Position numbers and translations under genes: made by a program
Part shown: positions 33,101-50,859 of the stretch, piece after piece
How the letters are laid out: every line of letters begins with the position of its first letter
Position numbering within the stretch: the first letter of the stretch is position 1
Origin: Chitinophagales bacterium
Lineage (GTDB): Bacteria > Bacteroidota > Bacteroidia > Chitinophagales > JADIYW01
Length of the DNA stretch: 64,000 nucleotides
Direction: 5' to 3'
NCBI GenBank assembly: GCA_020636535.1
Contig: JACJXT010000011.1
Coordinates: 1,202,151-1,266,150, forward strand
The notes under the pieces: model-generated
Told to the model about the DNA's origin: nothing
What the model saw: the letters and a program-made list of their open reading frames with translations, nothing else
Databases searched by the model: none

Positions 33101-36100
33101 TACCGTAGCAGCAAATTCTTTTCAAAATATGTTTAGAAATGCAATAAATTTTAATCAAAATTTAGCCAATTGGACATTAAAACCAACAGTAAATATGTTA
33201 CTAATGCTCGATAATGCTGGCTTAGATGTCAATAACTACGATGCTACACTTATTGGTTGGGAAGCTCAAGGCATTACTGGTAGAAATTTGGGTGCTTTAA
33301 ACTTAAAATATTGTGCTGCAGCACTACAAAGAAATAATTTAATTACTACTTATGGTTGGACAATTACTGGAGATAGTAGAGATTGTGGTGATCCTTTTAT
33401 TACTACTTGGAAAACAGACAATACAGGTATTTCTTCTAGTACTTCTATTACAATTCCAACTACAGGTACTGGCTACTACTACGATGTAGATTGGAACAAC
33501 GATGGTATTTTCGATGAATTTGGTATTACTGGCGATGTTACGCACGATTTTGGTGTTGCTGGTACTTATACTATTCGCATACAAGGTGCTTTTCCTAGAA
33601 TCTATTTCAACAATAGTGCTAGTTCAGATAAAGCAAAACTACTAGAAGTCAATCAATGGGGAGATGTTGTTTGGACAAGTATGAACGGTGCTTTCGCTGG
33701 CTGTACCAACTTAAGGGTTTTTGCTACAGATGCACCAGACTTATCTAGCGTTACAGATATGACTTCAATGTTTGCAAGATGTAGCTATATGAATGATAAT
33801 ATCAATCATTGGGATGTAAGCAATGTTACCAATATGACTTATTTATTCCTTTTTGCTTCACGATTTAACCAGCCATTAAATGATTGGAATGTAAGTAATG
33901 TAAATAATATGACAGGTGTTTTTCAATATGCATCAAAATTTAATCAAGACATAAGCGATTGGGAGGTAGATAATGTTATACGCTTTAGTTCTATGTTTAG
34001 GTATGCACCAGTGTTTAATCAACCACTAAATACATGGAATGTAAGTAATGGAATCTACTTTACAAATATGTTTAATGGAGCATATGCTTTTAATCAACCA
34101 TTAAGTACATGGAATATAAGCAATACAACAAGTTTAAAAGAAATGTTTTACTATGCTACTAGCTTTAATCAAAATCTAAGTAATTGGAATATAGCAGGAG
34201 TTACAGATATGACAAATATGTTATCTTATTCAGCTTTAGATGTTGCTAATTACGATGTTACACTTATTGGTTGGGAAGCACAAACAGTTCAAAATAATGT
34301 TCCTTTAGGTGCTATTAATTTAAGATATTGTGCAGCAGAGATACAAAGAAGCAATTTAATCACTACAAATACATGGACAATTACTGGAGATGCTAGAGCT
34401 TGTGGTAATCCATTTGTCACTACATGGAAAACAGACAATGCAGGTACTTCATCTAGTACTTCTATTACAATTCCAACTACAGGAACAGGTTACTACTATG
34501 ATGTAGATTGGAACAATGACGGTATTTTTGATGAATTTGGCTTAACTGGTGATGTAACTCATAATTTTGGTACAGCAGGTACTTACCAAATTGCTATCAG
34601 AGGTGATTTTCCTAGAATATATTTTAATAATGCTGGCGATAAAGATAAAATACTAAGTATAGACCAATGGGGAGACATTGAATGGACTTCAATGGAAAAT
34701 GCTTTCCATGGTTGTACTAATTTAATATCTTCAGCTATAGATGCACCAGATTTAAGCATCTGTACCATTTTAGATGGAATGTTTGCTCGTTGTACTAATT
34801 TTAATGCTAGCATTAATCATTGGAATGTAATTACTATTACTGATATGTCGGCTATGTTTTATCTAGCATATGCTTTTAATCAACCATTAGATAATTGGAA
34901 TGTAAGTAATGTAACAGATATGCATAGAATGTTTAGTGCCGCAATAGCATTTAATCAACCATTAAATAATTGGGATGTAAGTAATGTAATAGATATGTCA
35001 TATATGTTTTACAATACAGATGTTTTTAATCAATCACTAAACAATTGGAATACAAGTAGCGTAATCAATATGTCATATATGTTTTCTTATTCTAATGTTT
35101 TTGATCAGCCACTAAATAATTGGAATACTAGTAGTGTAATAGATATGTCAGAGATGTTTCATAATGCAGATGCTTTTAATCAACTATTAAATAATTGGAA
35201 TGTTAGTAGTGTTACTAATATGTCAGCTATGTTTTTTTCGGCAAACGCCTTTAATCAACCATTAAATACTTGGAATGTAAGTAGCGTAACTAATATGTCA
35301 GAGATGTTTATATACGCATCATCATTTAATCAACCATTAAATACTTGGAATGTAAGTAGCGTAACTAATATGTCATATATGTTTAATCATGCAACAGTAT
35401 TCAATCAATCATTAGCTAACTGGAATATTACAGCTGTAACAGATATGACAGATATGTTGTCTTTCTCTGGTTTAGATGTGGATAATTACGATAATACACT
35501 AATTGCTTGGGAAGCTCAAACAGTACAAAACAATGTGCCTCTCGGTGCTACATATCTTAAATATTGTGCAGCAGATGTGCAAAGAAGCAACTTAATAAGC
35601 ACTTATGGCTGGACAATTACTGGAGATAATAAAATTTGCGGTGAGCCATTCATCACTACATGGAAAACAGATAATGCAGGTGTTTCTTCTAGTACTTCTA
35701 TTACCATACCTACAACAGGCACTGGTTACAATTACGATGTAGATTGGAACAACGATGGTATTTTTGATGAATTTAATATTACTGGCAATGTTACACACGA
35801 CTTTGGCGTTGCTGGTACTTATACCATTCGCATACAAGGTGCTTTTCCTAGAATATATTTTCATGCTACTGGCGATAAAGACAAAATATTAAGCGTAAAT
35901 AAATGGGGCGATATTCAATGGTCTTCTATGGAATATGCTTTTGGGGATTGTAGCAATTTAAATGTTATCGCAACAGATGCTCCAGATTTATCTAATGTAA
36001 CTTCTCTTCATTCTATGTTTTCAAATTGCACTAATTTCGATGCTAATATTAATCATTGGGATGTTAGTAATGTAACCAATATGTCATATATGTTTTCAAG

Positions 36101-38152: not shown

Positions 38153-39019
38153 ATGAATAAAAAGTATTTAATAATAGCATTGTTTTTATTTCTTTTTGCT
38201 ACTTTAAAAAGTCAAGAATTACCACAAATAAAATCAATTACAGTTTTGGCAGATAAAGCAATGTATCATACTCAAGGTTTTCAAGTGCAAATAATTTTTA
38301 CTAAGTCATTAAGCACTTATATAACTGAATTCAATAATGCACCATTGCAAATAGAAGTATATCCAAAATATAGAAAAAAGAAAAATAAATTTGTGAGAAT
38401 TGAAAATCCTAAATGGTTTGATGATTTACGAAACTCATTTAGTATCAGTAGAATTACTTCTGATACAGCAGTAATAGATTTCTCTTATATTAATTTTACA
38501 CAATTTTCAAATAAAAATATAGACCTTCTATTTGATGTTGAACTCAAACAGTCTGATTATAAAAATCCATTAAATAATAAGTATTTTGTGTTAGATGCTA
38601 GTAATCAAATTGTAAACAGTGTGGCAATTCCAAAATTATATAATTTAAATTTATTAGTTAATGAATATAATGTTTCAAAAATTAATACCGATGTAAAAAT
38701 TTTGGGTTATGGCAACAAAAAACCAGATTCCTATTTTATTATAAAATATCCTGCATTTCAAGAATTTAAATCAAAGGTTTTTAAAAATACACTTCAAGTA
38801 GAAAATACTGAATCTAGTAATGGTACACTTACATCAAACGATTCAATAAAAATTCTATTTTATGATAGAGATAAAATAACATTTGATGATTTTTTAGATA
38901 AATATGAGTTTTCTATAAATGAATTGCTGTTAAATAAATCTTCAGTTATAAATGTTAACTTAGATGCTATTAATAACTTGGAGATAACATACACTATAAA
39001 AGAAGCAACAAAAAAGTAA
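38153..39019 (+). CDS. secreted hypothetical protein
   Basis: Signal peptide (...ATLKSQE). Starts 5 nt after the giant gene's stop. Confidence 0.5.
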   Translation: MNKKYLIIALFLFLFATLKSQELPQIKSITVLADKAMYHTQGFQVQIIFTKSLSTYITEFNNAPLQIEVYPKYRKKKNKFVRIENPKWFDDLRNSFSISRITSDTAVIDFSYINFTQFSNKNIDLLFDVELKQSDYKNPLNNKYFVLDASNQIVNSVAIPKLYNLNLLVNEYNVSKINTDVKILGYGNKKPDSYFIIKYPAFQEFKSKVFKNTLQVENTESSNGTLTSNDSIKILFYDRDKITFDDFLDKYEFSINELLLNKSSVINVNLDAINNLEITYTIKEATKK

Positions 39020-39688
39020 ATGGAGAATAAAGTCGAAAAAAATAAGGTTTTAAAAGATACAGCAATACCATCATTATTTAGTATTGTTTTAGACTTAATA
39101 TTTTTTGTACTAATACCGTTTATTGTAGTAGCAAGTATAGTGTTAATTATTAGTGGCTTTTATTTTACAGTAAAAGGCAATAATTATTTTAACGGTAAAA
39201 ATCCAATTTTAGATTTTATATTCTTTTTACACATTATATTTTATTTGTTTATTTTAATTATATATCCAACCGTAAAAATTGCAGGCACTATAGATTACTA
39301 TGGAGAAATTGATGAACAACCAACTACTCAAAAACTATTGTTTATTATTGGATTATTACTGCCTTTTGTAGCTGTTTTATTAATTAATTCCTTAGAAGAA
39401 TTTAACTTTAAAATATTTGTTTTAGAAGTCTTTTTTATAGATGTAATAGGTTTAGTACTTGGAGCAGTAGCATCTTCTGTAATAAGTTATAAATCTTCAA
39501 ATGCTAATGATGAAAGTAATTTTATTTTTTCTTATGGTTTGTTTTTTACAATTCCAACTATGATGATAGTATATATAAAAATAATATCATTAACTACATT
39601 TATGCCAAATATAGGTTTTATTTTATTAGCTATATTAGCCATTACAACTTATAATAATTATAAAATAATGAAAGTAGTATGTTTATGA
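39020..39688 (+). CDS. polytopic membrane protein (about 6 TM), unknown function
   Basis: Starts immediately after the previous stop. Several long hydrophobic segments. Confidence 0.5.
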   Translation: MENKVEKNKVLKDTAIPSLFSIVLDLIFFVLIPFIVVASIVLIISGFYFTVKGNNYFNGKNPILDFIFFLHIIFYLFILIIYPTVKIAGTIDYYGEIDEQPTTQKLLFIIGLLLPFVAVLLINSLEEFNFKIFVLEVFFIDVIGLVLGAVASSVISYKSSNANDESNFIFSYGLFFTIPTMMIVYIKIISLTTFMPNIGFILLAILAITTYNNYKIMKVVCL

Positions 39689-40371
39689 TGAAGATAAATA
39701 TAATAATATTATTTAATATGCTTTTTTCTTTGTCGTGCAAGCAGAAAACTAGTATTCAAGATAAAGTTAAAACTAGTATTGTTGATACAATGCCAAACCA
39801 AACTAAAAAAAATGTATTAAAAGACACCAATGAAATTAAAAAATATTTTAAAATCTATGATGCAAATTTATTTCTTCTGCAAGATGTAAACTTCGATGGT
39901 ATAAAAGATGCAATGACTATAGTTATAGATACTATTCTTAATGAAGATAACATAGTTACCAGTGTCGCCATTTTTGAAGGTAATAAAAACCAAACATTCA
40001 ACCAACCAAAATTCTTTTATTCAGATGATGATAATCAAACCTTTTCAGTTAATAAAAAAGGTGTTATAGCAATAAGCTATCAAGCAATGCGTAACGATGT
40101 AACACTTAAAATAAGATATGATGCTAAGTACAATAACTACATGGTTATTGGAAAAGATATTTTATATTACCAAAGTGGAGATTGCGATTATAATAAGTAT
40201 AGCATGAACTATTTAACAGGAAAAGCTATACATGAAGAAAGTTGTTGGGATGTTACAATTCAAAATCAAAAAGTAAATACAGATACAATAAATTTTAAAC
40301 CAACGCTATATTCATTCGAAGATATTCCAAACTTTGACGACTTTTTATATGAAACACCTTTTTATAATTAA
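39679..40371 (+). CDS. hypothetical lipoprotein
   Basis: Lipobox FSLSC. Overlaps the previous gene by 10 nt. The start could also be 39685 or 39688. Confidence 0.5.
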   Translation: MFMMKINIIILFNMLFSLSCKQKTSIQDKVKTSIVDTMPNQTKKNVLKDTNEIKKYFKIYDANLFLLQDVNFDGIKDAMTIVIDTILNEDNIVTSVAIFEGNKNQTFNQPKFFYSDDDNQTFSVNKKGVIAISYQAMRNDVTLKIRYDAKYNNYMVIGKDILYYQSGDCDYNKYSMNYLTGKAIHEESCWDVTIQNQKVNTDTINFKPTLYSFEDIPNFDDFLYETPFYN

Positions 40372-40401
40372 AAAATTAAATAAATTATGTATATATTCTT
40401 A

Positions 40402-40427
40402 GCAGTGTCTCTCGAAGAGGACGCTGC
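40402..40427. repeat. GTCTCTC-loop hairpin element
   Basis: gcagtgtc-tctcgaagag-gacgctgc (one G:T pair) right after the stop of 39679-40371. Homologous to 27922-27949. Confidence 0.6.
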
Positions 40428-40496
40428 GTTTAATGATAACTATATTACACAAATATCAATTGTTTTCATTTGATGGAACTTTTAAAACAAATAAAA

Positions 40497-41090
40497 ATGA
40501 AAAAAATACTATATATAACACTCATAATCTTAACTTCTTCTTGCACAGTACTCAATACGCTAAGTCAGAAAGAAGAAAAAATATTTTTGAAAGAAGCAGA
40601 ACCAATTAAAATTTCTATAGACGAAGGCGAATTGCCAAACGAATATATGATAAGTTTTGATGATGGCTTAGCAGAAAACTTAAACGAATTTGTCTATACT
40701 GAAGAATTATACAAAGATGATGCTATTGCTATTGCTGCACTTTGGATGTTAGCAGTACGAGAGTATAATGTAGACAATAGTTGGTACTTATCATATTTTG
40801 CTACAATTTTAGATAATGATTTTTTTAACTATAACAAGGGTAGGAAAGGAGAATTAAAAGAAACAACTAAAACAAAACTCAATTCGTATTTAAAAAACAC
40901 TAATTTTTCTAACTATAAACTATCATGTTGGCAAAAACAATACAGTTTAAATTTTTGTTTATGGATGGCAATAGTTGATGGAGTAAACACTGGCGAGTTT
41001 ATTGTAAGAATACGAGACAAAAACTTCAAATACAAAACACTAGTACTCAACAATACAAAAAATGGATATAAAGTAATTGATTTTTTATAA
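40497..41090 (+). CDS. hypothetical lipoprotein
   Basis: MKKILYITLIILTSSC lipobox from the ATG at 40497. The track ORF begins at an upstream TTG. Confidence 0.5.
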   Translation: MKKILYITLIILTSSCTVLNTLSQKEEKIFLKEAEPIKISIDEGELPNEYMISFDDGLAENLNEFVYTEELYKDDAIAIAALWMLAVREYNVDNSWYLSYFATILDNDFFNYNKGRKGELKETTKTKLNSYLKNTNFSNYKLSCWQKQYSLNFCLWMAIVDGVNTGEFIVRIRDKNFKYKTLVLNNTKNGYKVIDFL

Positions 41091-41323
41091 TATATAAATA
41101 ACTACTAATCAATTGTCATTAACTTCTAACTAACTAAATCTTCTAAAAATGATTTGTCCATTTTTACAGTAGCTTTTAGTTGATATAAGATAGCGTACAT
41201 ACCAAAAAATGTTCGATGCAAATAAATAGCATCTCTATTACCACGAATGGCTTTTGGTTTTCTAAACTCTTTGTTCGTACTCAATTGTTCGCCTTCTCGA
41301 TTCAGTTGATTGGTATATTCTTC
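40973..41323. repeat. left copy of the ~350-bp target-site duplication flanking the IS1634-family element
   Basis: Base-for-base identical, as far as I can read, to 43155-43505. It abuts the IS left inverted repeat. Confidence 0.85.
41126..41323 (-). pseudogene. duplicated 3' piece of the ABC1/UbiB-kinase gene fragment (part of the target duplication)
   Basis: Encodes ...EEYTNQLNREGEQLSTNKEFRKPKAIRGNRDAIYLHRTFFGMYAILYQLKATVKMDKSFLEDLVS. Identical to 43308-43505. Confidence 0.8.
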
Positions 41324-43154
41324 TCGAGTTTGACACCTTTTCATAAAATATGACTGAGAACGCCTTATTTTATTGAGTTTTGTTTTTATTTTTTCAAATT
41401 TGTAGTGAGCCGATTTTTTTTTGGTTGCTTTTATAATTAGTTTATCCGCTCTATTTTTGCAGTATGTCATTTTTGCGGATAGAGAAAAAATCATCAGGCA
41501 CGTATTTGCGTATCTTAGAAAGCTATCGAAATGATGAGGGCAAATCAAAGCACAAAATATTACACACACTTGGCAAAGTAGAAGATTATAAACCAGCCCA
41601 ATTGCGAGCCATCGGTATCCAATTATTTGAGTTAGGTGGTGGCGAAGTAAAGGCATTGCTAACTGGCGATTTGTTAGAATTAGGCAGATACAATTATGGC
41701 TATCAATACCTCTACCAAAAAGTATTACAGCATTATGGTTTGCAAGATGTGTTTCGCAGAATAGCCTCAAAAAACAAACTACAATTTAATTTTTCGGATG
41801 CTGTTTTGTTGATGCTTTTAGAGCGATTACAAGATCCGTGTAGTAAACATCAAAATTATCTACATCAGTCGGAATATCTTAATTTGCCTACTGTTTCGCT
41901 ACATCACTTGTATCGAACTTTAGATAAATTAGCCGACAATCAATCGCTCATTCAACAACAAATTTTCCAAACAGGCAGAGATTTATTTAATCAAAAATTG
42001 GATGTTGTATTTTATGATGTAACCACTTTGTATTTTGAAAGTGAAGTAGAACAACAAGGCAAACTTAGGCAAAAAGGATTTAGTAAAGATGGCAAAATAG
42101 GAAACACACAAATCTTGTTTTGTATGCTCATAGATACTGATAAAAATCCGATTGGTTATCAAATTTTTGAAGGCAATACCTACGAAGGACATACTTTTGA
42201 AAAAGCATTAATCGATTTAAAAAAACAATATCAAATAGAAAAAATAATTATGGTAGCAGATAGAGGTATGTTATCGAAACATAACATCGAAATTACCAAA
42301 AACAATGGCTACGAATTTATACTTGGCGAACGCATCAAAAGTTTACCTAAAACATTACAAACCGAGCTTACCGATTTAGCTTCTTTTACCAAACAATGGA
42401 TATACCATGATACAACTGGCGAAGCCATTGTAATTACATATAAAACCGTAGAACACGATGGTAAAACAATCATCGTAACACACAGCCAAAAACGAGCAAA
42501 AAAAGACAAACAAGATAGAGAAGACAAAGAAGCTACAGCTAAAATACTATTAAAAAATACAGCTCTAATTACCAAAAAAGCAAGTAGGTTTTATATACAA
42601 CAAAACCCAAAAGGCAGCTATGAACTGAATGAACAAAAACTAATAAACGATGCAAAGTACGATGGCATTTTGGCTATTAGCACCAACAACAAAACCCTTA
42701 CAGCAACACAAGTATTAGAACAATACAAACAACTTTATAAAATAGAACACACCTTTAGAACCTTTAAAGCACACTTAGAAATAAGACCCATGTTTCATTG
42801 GACAGACAAACGAATTAAAGGACATATTTGTTTATGCTATATCGCTTATACACTATTAAACTACACACTACAAAGAACCAATAAAAGCGGACTAAAACTC
42901 ACAGAGAATACGCTAAGAACTACGCTAAATAAAATGCAAGTAAGCTTGTTACAACACAATAAAGAGCAAATCTATGTACGTTCAAGACCAACAGAAAACG
43001 AAATTGCACTTCAAAGAGCAATAGGTTTAATGCCATTACAACCCATCATTCCAAAAGACAAACTAACACTATAAAATCCAATTTGTAGTGAGCCAATCCA
43101 ATAACACTATTGTTGATAATCAATTAATTAACTCAATATCGTGTCAAACTTGAG
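41324..43154 (+). mobile_element. IS1634-family (IS4-related DDE) insertion sequence, about 1.83 kb
   Basis: Terminal inverted repeats (tc)tcgagtttgacac at the left end and gtgtcaaacttgag(a) at the right end. Subterminal direct copies of aatttgtagtgagcc at 41397-41411 and 43080-43094. Single transposase ORF. Ends are uncertain by +/-2 nt. Confidence 0.8.
41464..43074 (+). CDS. IS1634-family DDE transposase
   Basis: 536 aa. The N-terminus MSFLRIEKKSSGTYLRILESYRNDEGKSKHKILHTLGK is characteristic of IS1634-type transposases. DDE-like segments: FYDVTTLYFES, MVADRGMLS, YKQLYKIEHTFRTFK. Confidence 0.8.
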   Translation: MSFLRIEKKSSGTYLRILESYRNDEGKSKHKILHTLGKVEDYKPAQLRAIGIQLFELGGGEVKALLTGDLLELGRYNYGYQYLYQKVLQHYGLQDVFRRIASKNKLQFNFSDAVLLMLLERLQDPCSKHQNYLHQSEYLNLPTVSLHHLYRTLDKLADNQSLIQQQIFQTGRDLFNQKLDVVFYDVTTLYFESEVEQQGKLRQKGFSKDGKIGNTQILFCMLIDTDKNPIGYQIFEGNTYEGHTFEKALIDLKKQYQIEKIIMVADRGMLSKHNIEITKNNGYEFILGERIKSLPKTLQTELTDLASFTKQWIYHDTTGEAIVITYKTVEHDGKTIIVTHSQKRAKKDKQDREDKEATAKILLKNTALITKKASRFYIQQNPKGSYELNEQKLINDAKYDGILAISTNNKTLTATQVLEQYKQLYKIEHTFRTFKAHLEIRPMFHWTDKRIKGHICLCYIAYTLLNYTLQRTNKSGLKLTENTLRTTLNKMQVSLLQHNKEQIYVRSRPTENEIALQRAIGLMPLQPIIPKDKLTL

Positions 43155-43505
43155 AGTTGATGGAGTAAACACTGGCGAGTTTATTGTAAGAATACGAGAC
43201 AAAAACTTCAAATACAAAACACTAGTACTCAACAATACAAAAAATGGATATAAAGTAATTGATTTTTTATAATATATAAATAACTACTAATCAATTGTCA
43301 TTAACTTCTAACTAACTAAATCTTCTAAAAATGATTTGTCCATTTTTACAGTAGCTTTTAGTTGATATAAGATAGCGTACATACCAAAAAATGTTCGATG
43401 CAAATAAATAGCATCTCTATTACCACGAATGGCTTTTGGTTTTCTAAACTCTTTGTTCGTACTCAATTGTTCGCCTTCTCGATTCAGTTGATTGGTATAT
43501 TCTTC
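43155..43505. repeat. right copy of the ~350-bp target-site duplication
   Basis: Identical to 40973-41323. It includes a second copy of the last 118 nt of lipoprotein gene 40497-41090. Confidence 0.85.
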
Positions 43506-43589
43506 ATCACCAAAATAAAAAGTGTCATGTTTTAGTGGTTCAGTAATAATATTAATTAATTTTTTAGCTGTACTATAAAATAAATACAT
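43308..43589 (-). pseudogene. 3'-terminal fragment of an ABC1/UbiB-family kinase gene (diverged duplicate of the end of 45939-47252)
   Basis: 43312-43594 aligns without gaps to 45943-46225 (283 nt, about 92% identity). The 93 encoded residues differ at only 4 positions from the C-terminus of the full-length gene. No N-terminal kinase part is present. Confidence 0.85.
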
Positions 43590-43615
43590 ATCTTTGAGTT
43601 CTAAGAAAATAATAG

Positions 43616-45019
43616 ATGTTATTTAATAGTTTTTCATTTGTTGGATTAGTATTAATCACAATGCTGATTTATTATATTCCTAAACTATCTAAATATCAAG
43701 TGAATATTCTTATTATATCAAGTTTGATTTTCTATTCATGGAATAATATTGCTCTTGTTACCTTATTGTTGTTTTCTGCAGGTATTAATATATTAAGTAG
43801 TTATTATATATTTTCAGAAAAAACTAAAAATAAAAAATTAGTTGCTTGGATTGGTGTTAGTTCAAATCTTCTTATTTTAGCTTTTTATAAGTATGCTGGA
43901 TTAATATCTTTTACCTTTTTTAAGGATACCGATCTTAGTGATTTTCTTATTACAATTCCTTTGCCCATTGGCATTTCATTTTTTACATTTCAAGGAATTA
44001 GTTTAGTAGTAGATGTCTATAAAGGAATTAACTCTAATGAAGATAAGATTATTTCAGAATCATTATATCAGCATGCAAAGAATACACTTTTTTTTATTTC
44101 ATTCTTTCCACAGTTAGTTGCTGGCCCGATAGTAAAAGCACATGAATTTTATCCTCAAATAAAAGAAAAGAAATTTAGTGCAATAAATTGGGAGAAGAGT
44201 TTTAAGGAAATAGTCTTGGGATATTTTCTTAAAGTCGTAGTAGCTGATAATTTAAAAGACTTTACTTTTTGGATTGAGTATCCTTATTTTCAAAATCAAG
44301 ATAGCTATAGTTTAATAATGATGTTATTTGGATATTCTTGTCAAATTTATGCTGATTTTGCTGGATATTCGTTAATAGCTATAGGAATAGCAAGACTATT
44401 TGGTTATAACTTAAGTGACAACTTTAATTTTCCATATATTTCAACTTCTTTTAAAGAATTTTGGAAAAGGTGGCATATTTCTCTTTCTTCCTTTTTGCAA
44501 GAATATTTATATATTCCTTTAGGTGGAAATAAAAAAGGAAAAGCAAGGACATATATAAATCTAATGATGACAATGATTCTCGGAGGTCTTTGGCATGGTG
44601 CATCTTGGAGTTATGCTGTATGGGGGGCTTTTCATGGATTGGTTCTAGCAATTGAAAGGTTTTTCATGAAAGAAGAACAGATAGAAAGAAGCTTTATAGT
44701 AACTGGTATTAGAATGCTATTTGTATTTTTTATGGTATCACTTGCATGGTTACTATTTAAACTACCTGAATTTAGTCATGTAGTTGACTATATAAAATGT
44801 ATATTTACAAATACATACAAAAGCCCTAATATTCAATTAATTTCTAATATATTTATTTTTTCATTGCCTGTTATTTTGCACCACTTGTTTTATTTGTATA
44901 CTTTTTACTTTAATAGTAGATTAATTAAAAAATATCAATTTGTTTTTTACGGAATGTTATTGTTCCTAATAATAACAAATGCTGGAGTCCCTGGAAGTTT
45001 TATTTATTTTCAATTTTAA
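43616..45019 (+). CDS. MBOAT-family membrane O-acyltransferase (AlgI/DltB-like)
   Basis: Polytopic. Conserved FWKRWHISLSSFLQEYLYIPLGGN and GLWHGASW motifs, including the catalytic His. Confidence 0.85.
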   Translation: MLFNSFSFVGLVLITMLIYYIPKLSKYQVNILIISSLIFYSWNNIALVTLLLFSAGINILSSYYIFSEKTKNKKLVAWIGVSSNLLILAFYKYAGLISFTFFKDTDLSDFLITIPLPIGISFFTFQGISLVVDVYKGINSNEDKIISESLYQHAKNTLFFISFFPQLVAGPIVKAHEFYPQIKEKKFSAINWEKSFKEIVLGYFLKVVVADNLKDFTFWIEYPYFQNQDSYSLIMMLFGYSCQIYADFAGYSLIAIGIARLFGYNLSDNFNFPYISTSFKEFWKRWHISLSSFLQEYLYIPLGGNKKGKARTYINLMMTMILGGLWHGASWSYAVWGAFHGLVLAIERFFMKEEQIERSFIVTGIRMLFVFFMVSLAWLLFKLPEFSHVVDYIKCIFTNTYKSPNIQLISNIFIFSLPVILHHLFYLYTFYFNSRLIKKYQFVFYGMLLFLIITNAGVPGSFIYFQF

Positions 45020-45023
45020 TTGT

Positions 45024-45920
45024 ATGATAAGAAAGACTATAATATTTACAATATTTCTTTTGCTCACTTGGAGTATCTTCCTTAGATATAATTCATTTAG
45101 TATATCTCAACATCAATGGCAAGCCAATATAGTGAATGCAGAAAAGTTTATTTACGATACAGACAGTTTTGATAATGTAATAGTTGGTTCTTCATTAGCT
45201 CAAAGACTTCAGATGGATAGCTTGCCTAACTTTTATAATCTTTCACTTAGCGGTCAATGTATATTTGATGGCTTAAATATTATAAAAAACAAAAACAAAC
45301 TACCAAAAAATATTTACATAGAAATAAATGTCATCAATCGTGAAGAGAATAAAAACTTTAATGAGATAATATCTTCTCCTATACTAAATGTGCTTAAAAA
45401 GAATTTTTTGATTTTTAGAACTGACAAACATCCACTTTCTTATGTAGAAAATAGATTTTTCTATCCAGTCACAAATTTTATTTTAGATATATTACATTAT
45501 GGTTTAAAAAATAGAATTAAATTATTTTTTGATTTAAAAAATAAAGAAAATATAGCTGATAACTCAGTTTTTTATAAAATGTTAAACCTACAAATAAATT
45601 ATTATTCAGAAAAAACTGACACAATGAAGATGGATAAATTATTTAATAAGCTTAAAAATAATATTGAGTTTTTGGAATCCAAGGGTTCAAAAGTTATCTT
45701 TTTTGAAATGCCTGTAAATCCTAAACTAGTACAATTAACCAGAGCATGTTATTTGCGTAATAGAATAGCAAATGATTTTCCTAATAATTTATTTATTAAA
45801 CTTCCAAGTAATATTAAACTTTATAAAACAAGCGATGGTGTACATTTAACACCTAATGAGGCAAAGATATATTCTGATTACTTAAAAGACAAGATAATTT
45901 CTTTATCTCTTGATAATTAA
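45024..45920 (+). CDS. MBOAT partner protein, possibly SGNH/DltD/AlgJ-like
   Basis: N-terminal membrane anchor from the ATG at 45024. VIVGSSLAQ (block I-like) and a C-terminal SDGVHLT (DxxH block V-like). The assignment is weak. Confidence 0.4.
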   Translation: MIRKTIIFTIFLLLTWSIFLRYNSFSISQHQWQANIVNAEKFIYDTDSFDNVIVGSSLAQRLQMDSLPNFYNLSLSGQCIFDGLNIIKNKNKLPKNIYIEINVINREENKNFNEIISSPILNVLKKNFLIFRTDKHPLSYVENRFFYPVTNFILDILHYGLKNRIKLFFDLKNKENIADNSVFYKMLNLQINYYSEKTDTMKMDKLFNKLKNNIEFLESKGSKVIFFEMPVNPKLVQLTRACYLRNRIANDFPNNLFIKLPSNIKLYKTSDGVHLTPNEAKIYSDYLKDKIISLSLDN

Positions 45921-45938
45921 AAAAAAGAATATTTATAT

Positions 45939-47252
45939 TTATCTAACTAAATCTTCTAAAAATGATTTGTCCATTTTTACAGTAGCTTTTAGTTGATATA
46001 AGATAGCGTACATACCAAAAAATGCTCGATGTAAATAAATAGCATCTCTATTACCACGAATAGCTTTTGGTTTTCTAAACTCTTTGTTAGTACTCAATTG
46101 TTCACCTTCTCGATTCAATTGATTGGTATATTCTTCATCACCAAAATAAAAAGTATCGTGCTTTAAAGGTTCAGTAATTATATCAATTAATTTCTTTGCT
46201 GTACTATAAAACAATTGCATATCTTCCTTGCTGTCATCAGCTCTAAGCATGTCTAATTTTATCAACTGTTCTTTAATTTTAGCTTCATCTTGTTGTAGAT
46301 TTTCATCGGCTAAAGAAAAATAAGTTTTATAAAAATCTTCTGAAATACTTTTCATACAACCAAAATCAAGCACAACCAATTTGTAATCATTAGTTACTAA
46401 AAAATTTCCTGGATGTGGATCTGCATGAAATCGCTTTGCATGATGTATTTGTTGAAATACAAAATCTACCAAAGTTTGTCCAATTTTATTTTTAATAGCT
46501 TGACTAACATCAGAATTAATAAAATCTTGCAATGGCATTCCTTCAATCCAATCCATTGTCAATACTCTATCAGAAGATAATTCTTTATAGTAATTCGGAA
46601 TCACTACATTGTCTAATGACTGACAAAGTGCAGCTACTTCCAAACCATTTTGCAACTCTAAATTGTAGTCGCACTCTTCTGTTAATCTTGCTTCAAACTC
46701 TTCTGCGTAATAATCTAAAAACGAAGTAGGCACACCAATTAGTCGAGCAGCCAAAGGTTTTACCATATTAATATCGTTGTGAATAGCATCAGCAACGCCA
46801 GGATATTGAATTTTTACAGCCAACTTTTTACCATCTTTATACGCTTCATGAACTTGACCAATAGAAGCAGCGTGTTTTGCAGTAGCATCAAATTCATCGT
46901 AAATAGCATTGGGTGCTTTGCCAAATTGCTTGATAAAAGTATTGGTAATTAATGGACCAGACAAAGCCATGGCATTGTTCTGTGCTTGTGCAAACTTTTC
47001 GGCATACTCTTTTGGTAACAAGCCAGTGTCCATGCTCATCATCTGAGCTACTTTTAAGGCACTTCCTTTTAGTTGATTGAGCAATTCAAAAATTTCGTCG
47101 GCATTTTTTTTGTCTAAATCTGCTTTATTGGTTTCTGAAACCATAGATTTTGCAGCATATTTTACATAGTTGCTACCAACTTTAACACCAGTTTTTAAAA
47201 ATCTAGATGCTCTTTGCACTTTGGAAGTAGGAATTTTGTTTTGCTCTTTCAT
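45939..47252 (-). CDS. ABC1/UbiB-family atypical kinase (AarF domain)
   Basis: 437 aa. AASIGQVH, KIQYPGV and FHADPHPGNF motifs of ABC1 kinases. Confidence 0.85.
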   Translation of the reverse strand: MKEQNKIPTSKVQRASRFLKTGVKVGSNYVKYAAKSMVSETNKADLDKKNADEIFELLNQLKGSALKVAQMMSMDTGLLPKEYAEKFAQAQNNAMALSGPLITNTFIKQFGKAPNAIYDEFDATAKHAASIGQVHEAYKDGKKLAVKIQYPGVADAIHNDINMVKPLAARLIGVPTSFLDYYAEEFEARLTEECDYNLELQNGLEVAALCQSLDNVVIPNYYKELSSDRVLTMDWIEGMPLQDFINSDVSQAIKNKIGQTLVDFVFQQIHHAKRFHADPHPGNFLVTNDYKLVVLDFGCMKSISEDFYKTYFSLADENLQQDEAKIKEQLIKLDMLRADDSKEDMQLFYSTAKKLIDIITEPLKHDTFYFGDEEYTNQLNREGEQLSTNKEFRKPKAIRGNRDAIYLHRAFFGMYAILYQLKATVKMDKSFLEDLVR

Positions 47253-47254
47253 CT

Positions 47255-47737
47255 TTACTTATTGTTTAACTGAATCAAAAACTTTGCCAAATCAAAACCA
47301 GAGTCAAATGCATTTGGAGCAATAGAATCGTAAGCAAAATGTACTGCTTTTTCAATCATCACATCAGTATCTTCTTGTTGATTTGATGCATCTTTCGACC
47401 AAGTTTGTAGCACTACAATAAAACTCCACCATAACACTTCTATATACGATTTTTCTACGAAAGCTCTTTTTTGCACTTCGCCAGTGTGTAGTGCATCTTC
47501 TAATATTGGATGCATTACATCAACATAAGCCGTTTTTAATTGCTTTACATCATCATCTAAAAATATTAAAAATAAGTTTTTACTAAATATAGGTTTAAAC
47601 TGTTCAGCATATTGATTGATTTGTTGAATAAAAGTAAAATAGAAAGCTAGTGTTTTTTCTCTAGAACTGTATTCAAAAAAAGCAACATCTTCGTGGCAAA
47701 TAGCAATACTTTGTTCTGTTATTGTTTTAAAATTCAT
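47255..47737 (-). CDS. hypothetical protein (operonic with the ABC1 kinase gene)
   Basis: 160-aa helical ORF ending 3 nt before the kinase start. No motif recognised. Confidence 0.4.
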   Translation of the reverse strand: MNFKTITEQSIAICHEDVAFFEYSSREKTLAFYFTFIQQINQYAEQFKPIFSKNLFLIFLDDDVKQLKTAYVDVMHPILEDALHTGEVQKRAFVEKSYIEVLWWSFIVVLQTWSKDASNQQEDTDVMIEKAVHFAYDSIAPNAFDSGFDLAKFLIQLNNK

Positions 47738-47822
47738 AGTGATTCAATTCGTTATCTAAAATTATTATAGAATATGCAATTATAGTTTACCAAAAGGTTT
47801 AATTTTGTTAGAAATAGTTAAG

Positions 47823-48797
47823 ATGTTATTAATTGATGATTTGCGAAGCGTTTTTTTAGATTATTTACAAGCACAACAACTGCCTACAACACCAAATGAA
47901 TTATATGAACCCAATACTTATTTTTTAAATATTGGTGGAAAAAGACTGCGACCGATTCTATTATTATTAGCCAATCAATTATACAAAGGAAATGTAAATG
48001 ATGCATTACCAGCAGCTTTAGCCATAGAGTATTTTCATAATTTTACATTAATTCATGATGATGTAATGGATGATGCACCTTTGCGAAGAAATCAGCAAAC
48101 AGTACATGAAAAATACAATATCAATACAGCAATTTTAAGTGGCGATGTTCTGTTGATTAAAGCTTACGAATTACTATCAAAAATAGATAATGAAAAATTA
48201 ACTTTAGTATTTAAAATATTTAATCAAACAGCAATAGAAGTTTGTGAAGGTCAGCAATACGATATAAATTTTGAAACGCAAACTGTAGTAACTGAAGCAG
48301 ATTATATTTATATGATTACATTAAAAACTTCAGTTTTAATTGCAGCAGCTATGCAAATTGGTGCTTTACTTGGAAATGCTACAACAGAAGATGCGAATTT
48401 ATTATACGATTATGCATTGAACTTAGGTATTGCCTTTCAAATACAAGACGATATTTTAGATTGTTATGGTGATAATAAACAAGTTGGTAAACAAATTGGT
48501 GGCGACATCATTCAAAATAAAAAAACATTGTTAATGATTAAAGCATTAGCAGACAGTAGTATTAAAGATGATAGTGAATTATCTGATATTTTATTATCAA
48601 ATACTATTAATAATGATGATAAAATAAATCAAGTATTGACTATTTTTGAATGCTACAACATCAAAGCGAAAGTAATAAAAACCAGAGACAGTTATATTGC
48701 AAAAGCCAAAACAAACTTAGCACAATTAAATTTAGACAATACTAACAAAGCTATTTTAGAAAGCTTAATCCATCATTTGGTATTGAGAGCGTATTGA
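47823..48797 (+). CDS. polyprenyl diphosphate synthase (trans-isoprenyl diphosphate synthase family)
   Basis: FARM motif LIHDDVMDD and SARM motif FQIQDDILD. I use the ATG at 47823 rather than the upstream TTG. Confidence 0.85.
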   Translation: MLLIDDLRSVFLDYLQAQQLPTTPNELYEPNTYFLNIGGKRLRPILLLLANQLYKGNVNDALPAALAIEYFHNFTLIHDDVMDDAPLRRNQQTVHEKYNINTAILSGDVLLIKAYELLSKIDNEKLTLVFKIFNQTAIEVCEGQQYDINFETQTVVTEADYIYMITLKTSVLIAAAMQIGALLGNATTEDANLLYDYALNLGIAFQIQDDILDCYGDNKQVGKQIGGDIIQNKKTLLMIKALADSSIKDDSELSDILLSNTINNDDKINQVLTIFECYNIKAKVIKTRDSYIAKAKTNLAQLNLDNTNKAILESLIHHLVLRAY

Positions 48798-48863
48798 AAA
48801 GTGCGTGCTGATAATTAACCTTTCTTAACACAGCTAATATTTTATTTATAATCACCTTTGTAT

Positions 48864-49613
48864 ATGGAAACTTTAAATAAAGTAGCTAAAATAACCTTGC
48901 TCTTTTGGTTAATGAAAATAGTAGCTACAACACTCGGAGAAACGCTTGGCGATTTTATTTCAATGACACTTAACTTAGGTTACGCCACTGGAATTGGTAT
49001 AACACTTATATTTTTTATTATCGTATTAATAGCTCAATTAAATGTAAAAAAGTATATTCCATATATATATTGGTTAGTCATTATAGGTACAACTACACTT
49101 GGTACAGAAATATCAGATTTTATAGATCGAAGCTTACATTTAGGTTATGCTTATGGTAGTCTATTATTAACTATAGGTTTGGCTGTTACCTTATTACTGT
49201 GGTACAAAAAATTTAAAAATTTAGAAGTATATCCAATCATCAATAAACAAAAAGAAATATATTATTGGATAGCTATTTTGTTTTCTAATAGTTTAGGTAC
49301 AGCTTTTGGTGATTTTTTAAGTGATAATATTGGATTGAGCTATCTTAATGGTGCAATAGTAACTGGAGTAATTATTCTTATCGTTATTTTATTACATTAT
49401 TTTACCAAGCTAAATGAAATACTATTGTTTTGGATAGCATTTATTTTTACTAGACCATTTGGTGCAACTTTTGGCGATTTCCTAACAAAACCACACGCAA
49501 AAGGTGGACTAGACTTAGGTACATTAACAGCTTCATTAGTTGCTATTATTTTGATGGTAGTACTTATTTATTTTTCTAATAAAGAACATCAAAAGTCAAT
49601 TAATAACACATAA
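48864..49613 (+). CDS. membrane protein with four internal repeats
   Basis: Four repeats of TM-TxLG(E/T/A)xxGDF(I/L)-x-LG(Y)-TM (GETLGDFIS, GTEISDFID, GTAFGDFLS, GATFGDFLT). I use the ATG at 48864. Confidence 0.55.
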   Translation: METLNKVAKITLLFWLMKIVATTLGETLGDFISMTLNLGYATGIGITLIFFIIVLIAQLNVKKYIPYIYWLVIIGTTTLGTEISDFIDRSLHLGYAYGSLLLTIGLAVTLLLWYKKFKNLEVYPIINKQKEIYYWIAILFSNSLGTAFGDFLSDNIGLSYLNGAIVTGVIILIVILLHYFTKLNEILLFWIAFIFTRPFGATFGDFLTKPHAKGGLDLGTLTASLVAIILMVVLIYFSNKEHQKSINNT

Positions 49614-49646
49614 TTTTTAATTTAGATAAACATTATATCATAATAA

Positions 49647-50069
49647 ATGAAAACATATCAGTTTTATGCAGTTATTTCCATGTTTTTTGCAGGAGTTACA
49701 GCTGTTATTGCTAAAGCTGGACTTAAAAATGTAAGTGCAGATACAGGTTTGGCTATTAGAACTTGTTTTGTGTTCTTATTTGTTTGGATAAATATTTTTG
49801 TATTCAATCCACTTAAAGATTTTTCCAACTTAACAACAAAAGATATTAGTTACTTAGGAATTTCTGCATTAACAACAACACTTTCTTGGATTTTTTACTA
49901 CAGAGCAATAAAAATTGGAAATGTATCTGAAGTTGCTTTAATAGATAAAGCGAGTATTATTGTAACACTTATACTTTCTTTTTTATTTTTAAATGAACAG
50001 TTTACTTGGCGTATTGCATTAGGTGCTACATTAATGCTAAGTGGATTTTTAGTTTTAACAGTTAAATGA
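49647..50069 (+). CDS. EamA-like (DMT superfamily) small transporter
   Basis: 140 aa with 4-5 TM segments and the single EamA domain pattern (ISALTTTLSWIFYYRAIKIGNVSEVALIDKASI). Confidence 0.65.
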   Translation: MKTYQFYAVISMFFAGVTAVIAKAGLKNVSADTGLAIRTCFVFLFVWINIFVFNPLKDFSNLTTKDISYLGISALTTTLSWIFYYRAIKIGNVSEVALIDKASIIVTLILSFLFLNEQFTWRIALGATLMLSGFLVLTVK

Positions 50070-50111
50070 TTAAGTTATTTTCAATTTTAACTAATTTATA
50101 TTATAATAAAA

Positions 50112-50599
50112 TTAGATTATTGATTCGTTGTGTAGCTCAAGTAATTTATTTAATAGATTTATAGAATAGTATCTATTTCTTTCTAGTAAAGTTTGAAAAA
50201 TTGGTCTTAATTCTTTTATAATATTTTTGTCTTTAGCTGTTGATAGAATTCCTAAAGTACCTATGCATTATATATTAAAATTTTCTGCAATTTTTCTTGC
50301 TTTTTTATCATCAATGAGTAAAAAGTTAGCATTTAATTCTTTATATAGAATTATTGATTCAGATTCTCCATAGTCCATTATAAATGATAAATCATTAAAT
50401 CCTTTAATTGAAACAATTCTCGATTCAAAAAAGAATTTTATTGTATTATAAAACTCAGTGCTTTTATCTAAAGTTATTTCTTCCCAAACTGCTTTTGAGA
50501 TTTTTTTTCATCAAAAAGTTGATTTAATAAATCTAATTTATCAATTATTGCTAATGAAAAAATTGGTCCAGCATCTGCAATTAAAAGCCCATTTTTCAT
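50112..50599 (-). pseudogene. decayed DUF3368/PIN-like toxin gene
   Basis: ATG at 50599-50597 overlaps the antitoxin stop (TAATG). It reads MKNGLLIADAGPIFSLAIIDKLDLLNQLFDEKK, then shifts frame in the run of 8 T (+ strand 50501-50508). The shifted frame continues ISKAVWEEITLDKS...ARKIAENFNI, hits an in-frame TAA at about 50267-50269, then GTLGILSTAKDKNIIKELRPIFQTLLE... to a stop at 50112. Confidence 0.7.
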
Positions 50600-50859
50600 T
50601 ATTTCAATTTTTCAATATCGTTTAAAACATCTTCTTCGTTTAAGTTTGAAATTGAAATTTTATTATTAGAAAGTTCTTTTTCAAACTCAAATCGAGACAT
50701 TTCAGATAGTTGAGCAGCTTTTCCAATGGTTAACTTTTGCAAGTCATAAAGTTGTATTGCTAAAATTAGCTTAATGCGTTTTTTTAGTTCATTTTCAGAC
50801 TCATTTAATGCTAAAAGAATATCATTTGGTAAGTCTAACGATATTTTTCGAGTTGTCAT
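50599..50859 (-). CDS. UPF0175-family antitoxin-like protein
   Basis: 86 aa. AIQLYDLQKLTIGKAAQLSEMSRFEFEKELSNNKISI matches the UPF0175 pattern. Confidence 0.7.
   Translation of the reverse strand: MTTRKISLDLPNDILLALNESENELKKRIKLILAIQLYDLQKLTIGKAAQLSEMSRFEFEKELSNNKISISNLNEEDVLNDIEKLK

Follow-up and report, generated by a model that had tools for sequence, protein, structure and literature searches.

A close described counterpart of the locus analysed here is icd/icdC around the cryptic prophage e14 of E. coli K-12 (and likewise phage 21), where an intact housekeeping gene stands on one side of the insert and an orphan C-terminal fragment lies beyond it. The icd/icdC repeat, as measured here, is 165 nt long and 92.7 % identical; 2 of its 12 differences change an amino acid, and recombination between its copies gives a working chimeric gene (PMC13626634). 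The prophage e14 itself is 15.2 kb long and encodes intE and xisE. Another relevant process is homology-facilitated illegitimate recombination, in which a homology anchor lies in a conserved gene while the other end joins illegitimately, so that an older module is displaced and kept as an orphan (PMC5361080). This process needs no dedicated recombinase and probably leaves the orphan 3' modules of the T6SS effector-immunity arrays of Vibrio cholerae and of the orphan C-terminal arrays of Rhs and CDI systems.

In the window studied here, that is, the whole stretch of 64,000 nucleotides from a Chitinophagales bacterium, the 3' end of a kinase gene recurs as an orphan beyond a two-gene cassette. 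The relevant features are:

40497..41090, plus strand: hypothetical lipoprotein-like gene, 197 aa, NCBI H6553_05680 (ORF list, NCBI annotation)
40973..41323, no strand: target-site duplication copy A, 351 bp, 100 % identical to 43155-43505
41324..43154, plus strand: IS1634-family insertion sequence, about 1831 bp (transposase models, terminal inverted repeats)
43155..43505, no strand: target-site duplication copy B, 351 bp, 100 % identical to 40973-41323
43308..43594, minus strand: left repeat, orphan 3' end of an ABC1/UbiB-family kinase gene (repeat alignment, ORF list)
43589..43596, plus strand: match to the Bacteroidota -7 motif TAnnTTTG, TATCTTTG (motif match only)
43616..45019, plus strand: MBOAT-family membrane O-acyltransferase, 467 aa (PF03062, 87 bits)
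45024..45920, plus strand: membrane-anchored SGNH/DltD-like partner, 298 aa (residues, AlphaFold, Foldseek, synteny)
45939..47252, minus strand: intact ABC1/UbiB-family atypical kinase gene, 437 aa (PF03109, 194 bits)
47255..47737, minus strand: TetR_C_23-domain gene immediately upstream of the kinase gene (PF17931 match)

The stretches 43309-43594 and 45940-46225 form a gap-free direct repeat of 286 nt with 93.4 % identity (BLAST E=1e-119, far above chance) and a longest identical run of 82 nt. The preliminary description had recognised this repeat, but its figures of 283 nt, about 92 % and about 22 differences need correction: there are 19 coding differences plus the third base of the stop codon, which is TAG in the orphan and TAA in the intact gene. 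It correctly recognised the right copy as the genuine end of the kinase gene (its last 286 nt) and the left copy as an orphan fragment, whose 93-codon frame (43308-43589) is still open and carries the NCBI annotation hypothetical protein H6553_05695. The repeats do enclose the MBOAT gene and its partner, with spacers of 21 and 18 nt, once the start of the partner is set at 45024. Homology extends to the kinase stop codon at one end and, at the other, to a point 21 nt short of the MBOAT ATG, and an identical 8-nt block, CATATCTT, marks the gene-proximal boundary. Since similarity vanishes abruptly at the stop codon, just beyond a segment of only 3.3 % divergence, the limit there is a junction and not the result of gradual decay.

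Compared with icd/icdC, the kinase repeat has the same identity of about 93 %, and nearly all differences are synonymous in both. However, the insert here measures 2.3 kb and holds two cargo genes but no recombinase, the repeats diverge in mosaic fashion, and no other genome shows use of this gene end (0/60 loci). The likeness to the T6SS, Rhs and CDI arrays is limited in another way: those displace variable toxin ends repeatedly and under diversifying selection, whereas here a conserved gene end was duplicated once, with no recurrence seen in 60 kinase and 35 MBOAT-partner loci.

The divergence of the two copies bears the mark of coding constraint: by the Nei-Gojobori method 14 differences are synonymous and 5 non-synonymous (dN/dS 0.07, binomial p=4e-7), so that the two rates, whose comparison had been proposed in the preliminary description, are clearly not equal; its count of 4 amino-acid-changing codons stands. 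Simulated neutral decay and duplication followed by decay yield 12-14 changed codons, and four or fewer were reached in 0/3000 runs under neutral decay and in 0/3000 runs of local duplication with one decaying copy, while a simulation with both copies constrained gives 4.1. The copies therefore accumulated their differences while each belonged to a working gene, rather than through local duplication and decay, in agreement with the earlier view that the fragment changed as part of a functional gene. The further claim that the orphan is the transferred piece is not supported: under the att-like geometry that the preliminary description itself invokes, such as that of e14 in icd, the orphan would be native and the end of the intact gene foreign. 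The data fit either copy being the foreign one and cannot decide between them.

The repeat pair is also a mosaic. Divergence reaches 17 % in the gene-proximal 71 nt (12 differences in 43524-43594) versus 3.3 % in the other 215 nt (7 differences in 43309-43523), with a change point at 43523 (permutation p=0.006). Third positions differ at 9/30 gene-proximal versus 5/65 stop-proximal sites (p=0.01), and synonymous divergence, when the pair is split at 43505, is about 1.09 versus 0.14. At the differing sites the orphan is AT-richer gene-proximally (6 v 2) and GC-richer stop-proximally (1 v 6; p=0.04). A related strain, represented by the JGI contig L144, matches 46949-48011 at 98 % identity with 21 clustered mismatches: 12 lie within 133 nt of the kinase gene, the following 436 nt have none, and a further 139 nt then hold 8. 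As judged from these patchy imports in the kinase gene, homologous exchange is active in this population. GC3 is alike in cassette and flanks (0.12-0.23), and this common base composition points to a related donor.

The orphan has subsequently been split by the insertion sequence, which adds a third partial copy absent from the preliminary description. The transposase gene of this element (41464-43074, 536 aa) matches NF033559 with 350 bits (cut-off 100) as well as PF01609 DDE_Tnp_1, and an identical transposase is annotated at at least 4 loci of the same MAG. Its terminal inverted repeats, CTCGAGTTTGACAC and, as reverse complement, CTCAAGTTTGACAC, match at 13/14 positions, and the ends at 41324 and 43154 fit the family consensus C-----YT (PMC2266710). 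In copy A of the 351-bp duplication, a 35-nt spacer separates the 3' end of the lipoprotein-like gene from the final 197 nt of the orphan (41127-41323, minus strand; 96.4 % identical to 45940-46136), and NCBI calls a 72-aa ORF there, H6553_05685. The last 197 nt of the kinase gene are thus present three times because the element duplicated 351 bp when it split the orphan. Most members of the IS1634 family duplicate only 5-6 bp, but IS1634 and IS1549 produce long and variable target duplications of 8-514 bp (PMC2266710). The present element resembles these two in its equivalog transposase, its consensus-fitting ends and perfect direct repeats within that range, and differs in coming from Chitinophagales and not from Mycoplasma or Mycobacterium. 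Its insertion accounts only for the third copy, not for the 93 % repeat.

The cassette was described beforehand as an MBOAT and SGNH-like pair, and several observations beside the PF03062 match support this. The closest relatives of the MBOAT protein are 76 % identical, and it scores 160 bits with the DltB model TIGR04091, under the cut-off of 375. The partner matched no Pfam or NCBIfam model, but residues G55, S57, G83, N102, D271 and H274 are invariant in 46 homologues, its AlphaFold model (pLDDT 91) has DltD, GDSL-like hydrolases and PatB as top Foldseek matches in the PDB, and it lies directly downstream of the MBOAT gene in 63/81 other loci. As in DltB/DltD, PatA/PatB and AlgI/AlgJ/AlgX, the gene of a polytopic MBOAT protein precedes that of a membrane-anchored protein with a DltD-like fold, which here has the SGNH-type Ser/Gly/Asn/Asp-His set. 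In contrast to DltB/DltD and the Alg systems, no DltA/DltC carrier genes or alginate genes lie nearby, and the DltB and partner model results likewise set the pair apart from DltB/DltD. The cassette probably O-acylates a cell-envelope glycopolymer. The candidate -7 motif spans the 43594|43595 junction and runs from 27 nt (first base) to 19 nt (last base) ahead of the MBOAT start codon; chance alone would produce a match at about 5 % of such positions, and relatives do not conserve the motif in front of their MBOAT genes.

On the right, the kinase gene is in familiar surroundings. Its product scores 171 bits with the UbiB equivalog TIGR01982, under the cut-off of 487, and a TetR homologue lies directly upstream in about 45/55 Bacteroidota loci as well as in L144 and in the congener L146 (87 % identity). 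This conserved neighbour marks the right side as ancestral, and since L146 retains the order polyprenyl synthase, TetR, kinase, the right side is the resident one. On the left, the lipoprotein-like gene, for which Pfam and NCBIfam gave no match, converges on the orphan and provides a first downstream context. At 71 % identity, the nearest full-length homologues of the kinase have no downstream synteny in common with this locus. Among 60 other ABC1-kinase loci of Bacteroidota, none has a second kinase fragment or a tandem or nearby copy, and none has an MBOAT pair within 10 kb. Conversely, 0/81 other MBOAT-partner loci have a kinase gene within 6 kb, and comparable bracketing repeats were found at 0/35 testable ones. 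The arrangement of repeat and cassette is a one-off.

The explanation we favour, if only modestly, is a recombination scar in which two alternative contexts downstream of the kinase gene, itself of housekeeping type, now stand in tandem. Two related low-GC Chitinophagales lineages would have carried the same kinase gene with different downstream neighbours, the lipoprotein-like gene in one and the convergent MBOAT and SGNH-partner pair in the other. DNA of one lineage would have entered the other and undergone one homologous crossover inside the kinase gene, while the second joint would have been illegitimate, at a point 286 nt from the stop codon in one partner and, in the other, 21 nt ahead of the MBOAT start. 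The route could be homology-facilitated illegitimate recombination of a linear fragment or, equivalently, Campbell-type single-crossover integration of a circularised 2.63-kb piece. Either way, one intact kinase gene would remain, with a stranded allelic 3' end beyond the cassette; further short-patch exchanges would have made the pair mosaic, and an active IS1634-family element would later have inserted into the orphan, duplicating 351 bp and giving the third partial copy. The type of recombination, the two parental contexts and the order of events are what we infer from the present structure. Nested homologous-recombination imports, offered as an alternative in the preliminary description, thus turn out to be the best fit, given the mosaic pair and the patchy imports in the 98 % identical strain. 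Four points weigh on the other side: the nearest full-length kinase homologues are too distant to show either parental arrangement or an empty site, the two levels of divergence need at least one extra event, the scar does not account for the AT/GC switch along the orphan, and the MBOAT-to-kinase adjacency required of one parent was seen nowhere else in the kinase and MBOAT-partner loci surveyed.

A remnant or non-autonomous relative of a site-specific integrative element that targets the kinase 3' end and carries a replacement end is unlikely, although it deserves some weight. The last 286 nt of the intact gene would then be element-derived, the orphan would be the displaced native end, and the recombinase would have acted in trans or since been lost. 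Geometry and numbers nearly match icd/icdC, a replacement end would likewise remain under coding constraint, the 8-nt block lies at the gene-proximal boundary, and cell-surface modification genes are typical cargo beside att sites. However, the 2.3-kb insert lacks integrase, excisionase and other element genes, the cassette and the Pfam-scanned ORFs of the window yielded no site-specific recombinase or integrase, and spacers of 21 and 18 nt are too short for decayed remains. The absence of a second fragment from 60 kinase loci and of bracketing repeats from 35 MBOAT-partner loci means that no element family using this site is visible, and mosaic divergence is unexpected from a single site-specific event. 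The att-like element suggested earlier is for these reasons not borne out.

Improbable, too, is the former coexistence of two full-length kinase paralogues, from an old duplication or the acquisition of a whole copy, both long functional until a deletion or rearrangement left only the final 286 nt of one. Several ABC1-family genes per genome are common, and two functional paralogues would be expected to show a low dN/dS just as well. But no tandem or nearby second copy exists at the 60 kinase loci, and, besides the intact protein, the 90 % protein cluster of the kinase has just the two fragments of this locus as members. Moreover, similarity stops abruptly at the stop codon where a duplicated segment should carry flanks too, and the truncation must fall 21 nt before MBOAT.

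An assembly artefact, in which co-occurring strains were joined into a false tandem or a false 351-bp duplication in a hybrid MAG, is very improbable. The source is a metagenome-assembled genome with a 2.15-Mb contig, related strains (L144 and L146) exist in metagenomes other than the source sample, and the 351-bp repeats are perfect and cannot be spanned by short reads. Nevertheless, both inner junctions, orphan to MBOAT and partner to intact gene end, recur at 100 % identity in independent short-read contigs of three runs. Of these contigs, all 100 % identical to the locus, L061 equals 43494-45972, L145 equals 44944-45972 and L143 equals 46125-50688. Each ends exactly where the repeats force a 31-mer graph (k=31) to branch, and L143 joins the right-copy-specific stretch 46125-46225 to the body of the kinase gene. 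The repeat structure is real in the short-read assemblies. In addition, the IS ends with their proper inverted repeats adjoin the 351-bp duplication exactly, and long duplications are documented for the IS1634 family.

Finally, local duplication of the kinase 3' end, for example as a long target-site duplication at cassette insertion, with decay of the orphan in place, is practically negligible and is rejected by simulation. Direct repeats hundreds of bases long do arise in this genome, as the IS1634-family element lying 88 nt off shows. However, simulated orphans with 19 differences average 12.3 changed codons (four or fewer in 0/3000 runs) and keep an open frame in just 37 % of cases, homology terminates exactly at the stop codon, and the cassette has no flanking transposon ends.

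On the favoured reading, the repeat and its cassette are a known kind of scar, left by ordinary gene exchange between related bacteria. RecA-type recombination between the two repeats would delete the 2631-bp cassette precisely and would leave a working chimeric kinase gene.

The kinase gene, its two 3' ends and the genes lying between them occupy the following positions in the window.

43309-43594: left repeat, an orphan fragment of the kinase gene's 3' end
43616-45019, plus strand: MBOAT gene, first gene of the cassette
45024-45920, plus strand: SGNH/DltD-like partner gene, second gene of the cassette
45940-46225: right repeat, the last 286 nt of the intact kinase gene
45939-47252, minus strand: kinase gene, 437 codons, with a PF03109 ABC1 atypical-kinase domain (194 bits)

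Self-comparison of the window and a base-by-base alignment define the repeats as gap-free over 286 nt, with 19 mismatches and 93.4 % identity, and apart from small differences in these figures the preliminary description of a two-gene cassette bracketed by copies of a kinase-gene end is correct. At one boundary stands the stop codon, which reads TAG in the orphan and TAA in the intact gene; past it the alignment finds no alignable sequence between the two copies. The other is sharp (43594|43595): the orphan loses similarity after 43594, leaving 21 nt up to the MBOAT start codon. The partner gene starts 4 nt after the MBOAT gene and ends 18 nt from the kinase stop codon. Since only the ABC1 domain family is matched by the kinase, which misses the UbiB equivalog cut-offs (TIGR01982, 171 bits vs 487; NF003404, 128 vs 667), “ABC1/UbiB-family kinase” (ABC1/AarF/UbiB) is the safe name.

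The source is a metagenome-assembled Chitinophagales genome deposited at NCBI (2.15-Mb contig, locus tags H6553_05680 to _05715), which raises the question of an assembly artefact. Its sample belongs to an activated-sludge project that includes the runs SRR12358675 and SRR12358676. Three sequencing runs supply short-read contigs that are 100 % identical to the window over 43494-45972 (L061), 44944-45972 (L145) and 46125-50688 (L143), and each contig ends exactly at the first 31-mer common to the repeat copies, the behaviour that genuine repeats impose on a k=31 assembly graph. In addition, the segment specific to the right copy is joined to the kinase gene body in short-read contigs. An artefact is extremely improbable, given that these independent contigs carry both inner junctions, from orphan to MBOAT and from partner to intact kinase end.

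The differences between the two copies bear the marks of coding constraint. The preliminary description had argued from the scarcity of amino-acid changes that the fragment diverged while part of a functional gene, and had proposed a dN/dS comparison of the copies. Over 94 codons the Nei-Gojobori method counts 14 synonymous and 5 non-synonymous changes (dN 0.022, dS 0.31, dN/dS 0.07), so that the two rates are unequal; under neutrality about 81 % of the changes would be expected to be non-synonymous (binomial p=4e-7). Three histories were simulated with transition bias and AT bias, conditioned on 19 differences, in 3000 runs each, and compared with the 4 changed codons observed between the copies.

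Changed codons in simulated histories of the repeat pair
Both copies neutral: mean 14.3; runs with 4 or fewer, 0/3000
Local duplication, orphan neutral and intact gene constrained: mean 12.3; runs with 4 or fewer, 0/3000
Both copies constrained at the observed ratio: mean 4.1; runs with 4 or fewer, about 1,800/3000 (P = 0.595)

The argument from constraint is thus upheld, and a local duplication followed by decay of the orphan, which never yielded so few changed codons, is hardly credible. Nearly all divergence arose while both copies belonged to working genes; they are two alleles, each derived from a functional gene of its own, rather than products of a local duplication. Of the amino-acid changes, polarisation with outgroups (about 50-60 % identity over the stretch) assigns one to each of the two lineages; the other two are uninformative.

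The divergence is not evenly spread. The 71 nt next to the gene body (43524-43594) hold 12 of the 19 differences (17 %) and the remaining 215 nt hold 7 (3.3 %), with a best change point at 43523 (permutation p=0.006). Third-codon positions alone give the same picture (9/30 vs 5/65 differ, p=0.01), and with a split at 43505 the synonymous divergence is about 1.09 vs 0.14, synonymous change dominating in both segments. The more diverged segment differs as much as do congeneric species, represented by a relative (L146, from SRR20002566) that shares 87 % identity with the window along 1.7 kb. The mosaic requires at least one further exchange, matching patchy imports seen in another relative (L144). 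When the differing sites of 43308-43594 and 45939-46225 are compared by base, the intact copy is the GC-richer at 6 gene-proximal sites v 2, and the orphan at 6 stop-proximal sites v 1. This weak switch of polarity near 43524 (p=0.04) may fit a reciprocal crossover at that point, but is treated as unexplained.

L144 (JGI 3300010349) is 98 % identical to window positions 46949-48011, and its 21 mismatches are clustered: 12 fall in 133 nt of the kinase gene (46962-47094), none in the following 436 nt (47095-47530) and 8 in the next 139 nt (47531-47669). Such clustering, the usual signature of short imported patches, points to short stretches imported by recombination into the kinase gene and the TetR-like gene, so that homologous exchange with diverged relatives operates in the population.

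The surroundings of the kinase gene tell its two sides apart. Directly upstream lies a TetR_C_23 gene (47255-47737), as in about 45 of 55 Bacteroidota loci (L001-L055), and the two look like a conserved two-gene unit in menaquinone-using organisms. Because this neighbour is conserved and both L144 and L146 keep the order polyprenyl synthase, TetR, kinase, the right side is resident. On the downstream side of the kinase gene no neighbour is conserved, the nearest full-length homologues (67-71 %) included, and neither these nor the closest MBOAT homologue (76 %) have any flanking gene in common with the window. No relative above 71 % covers the kinase 3' end, L144 stopping 724 nt and L146 214 nt short of the repeat. 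A genome scan with the kinase protein, used for the TetR-linkage and second-fragment statistics only, gave a best match of 49 % identity. The association of kinase and cassette itself was not encountered elsewhere: an MBOAT pair occurs within 10 kb at 0/60 kinase loci, a kinase gene within 6 kb at 0/81 MBOAT-partner loci, and comparable bracketing repeats at 0/35 MBOAT-partner loci having enough flank. Around these 35 loci the search returned three weak 75 % matches (L069, L094, L109), none of which abuts the pair; that in L069 (about 4585-6849), 200 nt long, lies about 2.4 kb upstream of the pair vs 0.6 kb downstream and probably reflects paralogous genes. A degenerate DNA pattern scan for the lineage-specific peptide NQLNREGEQLSTNKEF had 0 hits in metagenomes, and an Rfam scan of the window had no matches.

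In the cassette, the MBOAT gene matches PF03062 (87 bits, cut-off 27), and its nearest named model is DltB, at a score below the cut-off (TIGR04091, 160 bits vs 375). The partner has no match among Pfam or NCBIfam models; its Gly55, Ser57, Gly83, Asn102, Asp271 and His274, invariant in an alignment of 46 homologues, form an SGNH-type set, and it has an N-terminal membrane helix. Since searching the PDB by sequence with the partner profile yielded two matches only, both at chance level, the fold was compared instead. The AlphaFold model is confident (pLDDT 91), and matches DltD first, followed by GDSL-like hydrolases and PatB, at probabilities of 0.97-1.0 with weak E-values (about 5e-3 or worse) and TM-scores of 0.36-0.42. 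From the MBOAT domain, the SGNH set and the DltD-like predicted fold, the cassette therefore probably works as an MBOAT plus SGNH partner acylation pair, in the manner of DltB/DltD, PatA/PatB and AlgI/AlgJ/AlgX. It is not a Dlt (D-alanylation) system, because DltA and DltC are absent, the neighbours being the kinase gene and hypothetical genes, and because the DltB equivalog score is not reached. The two genes constitute a tightly linked module: in 63 of 81 other loci the MBOAT gene immediately precedes the partner. Neither base composition nor GC3 (0.18-0.19 vs 0.12-0.23 in the flanks) differs between cassette and flanks.

A sequence formed across the left junction, TATCTTTG at 43589-43596, matches the Bacteroidota -7 promoter motif TAnnTTTG, the kinase fragment supplying TATCTT and the cassette side TG; the distance to the MBOAT start is 19 nt from its last base and 27 nt from its first. 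The starts at 41464 and 41841 (the latter also written 51841) are preceded by similar motifs at a distance of 12-13 nt. As an MBOAT promoter the junction motif is plausible, but it is near chance level and not conserved in relatives, and was not retained.

What can have produced this arrangement is constrained by four features: the allelic nature of the two ends, the coincidence of one boundary with the stop codon, the sharp joint 21 nt short of the MBOAT gene at the other, and the lack of a recombinase among the ORFs scanned. On balance, and with somewhat better than even confidence, we favour import by host recombination, of the homology-facilitated illegitimate or Campbell type. It would have begun with two related lineages carrying different genes downstream of the kinase gene, namely the lipoprotein-like gene (40497-41090, plus strand) now beside the orphan in one and the convergent MBOAT-partner pair in the other. 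The kinase gene would have served as the homologous anchor, to which one illegitimate joint was added. The substrate may have been a linear fragment, entering by homology-facilitated illegitimate recombination, a process that has been proposed for orphan immunity-gene arrays (PMC5361080), or a circularised 2.63-kb fragment integrating by a single crossover; both routes would give the observed product. If the cassette was imported, the orphan would be the native end, and if the context of the lipoprotein-like gene was imported, it would be the foreign end. The latter was assumed in the preliminary description, where the orphan is the arrival; this direction of transfer is unsupported, the scar alone giving no indication of its foreign side.

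The main competitor is a remnant of an integrative element that brought a replacement gene end, as prophage e14 does at icd in E. coli, and the resemblance is very close. The repeats are direct copies of the target 3' end, one completing the gene and one orphaned, with differences that are mainly synonymous; the same comparison of the last 165 nt of E. coli K-12 icd with icdC, at the far end of e14, gives 92.7 % identity and 12 differences, 2 of which change the protein. Deletion between the e14 repeats yields a working chimeric gene, and the same consequence is predicted here. However, e14 carries intE and xisE, whereas the present insert holds only the MBOAT gene and its partner, its cargo alone. 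Pfam detected no Phage_integrase, Resolvase or other site-specific recombinase in the ORFs scanned, which comprise most of the window's larger ones and include the cassette, and the same attachment gene is in use at 0/60 other Bacteroidota ABC1-kinase loci. As the defining recombinase is absent from the insert, the locus does not belong to the e14 type, and an origin of this kind is unlikely. Of the mechanisms first put forward, then, import by transfer and recombination carries the most weight, while the att-site reading is not supported, given the missing recombinase and a gene end that was not seen reused at other loci.

Two further possibilities have less to recommend them. That the two ends stem from coexisting paralogues of the kinase is quite improbable; it would equally account for the constraint on both copies, but a second kinase fragment within 10 kb was seen at 0/60 ABC1-kinase loci in Bacteroidota genomes and metagenomes. 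It is highly improbable, too, that the 2.63-kb unit, cassette plus one kinase 3' end, is an integrase-free mobile cassette that depends on the host's homologous recombination alone to pass from one strain to a related one. Its replacement gene end would then act as a homology handle: recombination across the 286-nt repeats would release a circle, one crossover would insert it into the next genome, and the housekeeping gene would stay intact throughout.

An import by host recombination, the favoured origin, would not be the last event recorded at the locus. The preliminary description missed both an insertion of the IS1634 family and a third copy of the kinase-gene end, which now occurs three times in the window. 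The elements concerned are as follows.

40973-41323 and 43155-43505: perfect direct repeats, 351 nt, 100 % identical (self-comparison of the window)
41324-43154: IS1634-family element, 1831 bp, with a 536-codon transposase gene, between the 351-nt stretches

The transposase scores 350 bits against the IS1634-family equivalog NF033559 (cut-off 100). The 14-nt terminal inverted repeats, CTCGAGTTTGACAC and, as reverse complement, CTCAAGTTTGACAC, match at 13/14 positions and begin C-----TT, which fits the family end consensus C-----YT (PMC2266710). IS1634 and IS1549 make long and variable target duplications of 8-514 bp, the family range being otherwise 5-6 bp (PMC2266710), so that the 351-bp duplication is textbook-unusual but documented. 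NCBI lists the identical 536-aa transposase under 4 accessions from the same MAG, where it is annotated at 4 or more loci, and 4 further ones are near-identical. The family match, the inverted repeats, the long duplication and the multiple genomic copies therefore identify a recent insertion of an active IS1634-family element into the orphan fragment, and in the process the terminal part of the lipoprotein-like gene, the spacer and the orphan's last 197 nt were duplicated. On its right side the duplication stops at 43505, within the 36-nt interval that holds the divergence change point; with a chance of about 12 %, this is treated as a coincidence. An ORF at 41126-41770 (minus strand, 214 codons) is a read-through artefact running from inside the IS into the kinase fragment of the left duplication copy (40973-41323), and a 72-aa piece of it is annotated by NCBI as H6553_05685.

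Further observations concern the host genome and the rest of the window. The MAG is a single contig of about 29 % GC with several active IS families. Complete genomes offer it no relative above about 70 % protein identity, and it may belong to a lineage of activated sludge that has a reduced genome or lives in association with a host. Two IS200-like copies (158-aa Y1 transposase, PF01797), 97.5 % identical, lie at 1-589, where the window edge cuts the first, and at 13771-14359. A tandem array of a 172-bp unit (18367-18932; 3.3 copies, 95 % identity) is found just upstream of a LuxR-type response regulator gene. A giant protein of 2677 aa (30114-38147) combines at least 16 DUF285 repeats with a type IX secretion C-terminal sorting domain. 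Repeats at the DNA level inside its gene are 72-82 % identical, and the gene is followed by four small hypothetical genes of very low GC (22-27 %; 38153-41090).

Taken as a whole, the locus adds one more case to a familiar type of scar, on which a long IS1634-type target duplication has been superimposed, and none of these findings overturns current understanding. The duplication extends the record of very long IS1634-family target duplications to the Bacteroidota. For the reading of such scars, an orphan gene end with low dN/dS is by itself no proof of an att site, nor does the scar alone reveal the direction of transfer. The locus offers a clean and quantifiable example of the way in which an accessory envelope-modification cassette can come to lie beside a conserved gene without a dedicated recombinase, and it does so in a Chitinophagales lineage that has been poorly sampled and has a small (2.15-Mb contig), low-GC genome. 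Its repeats predict that the cassette would be lost precisely and reversibly, leaving behind a chimeric but intact kinase gene.
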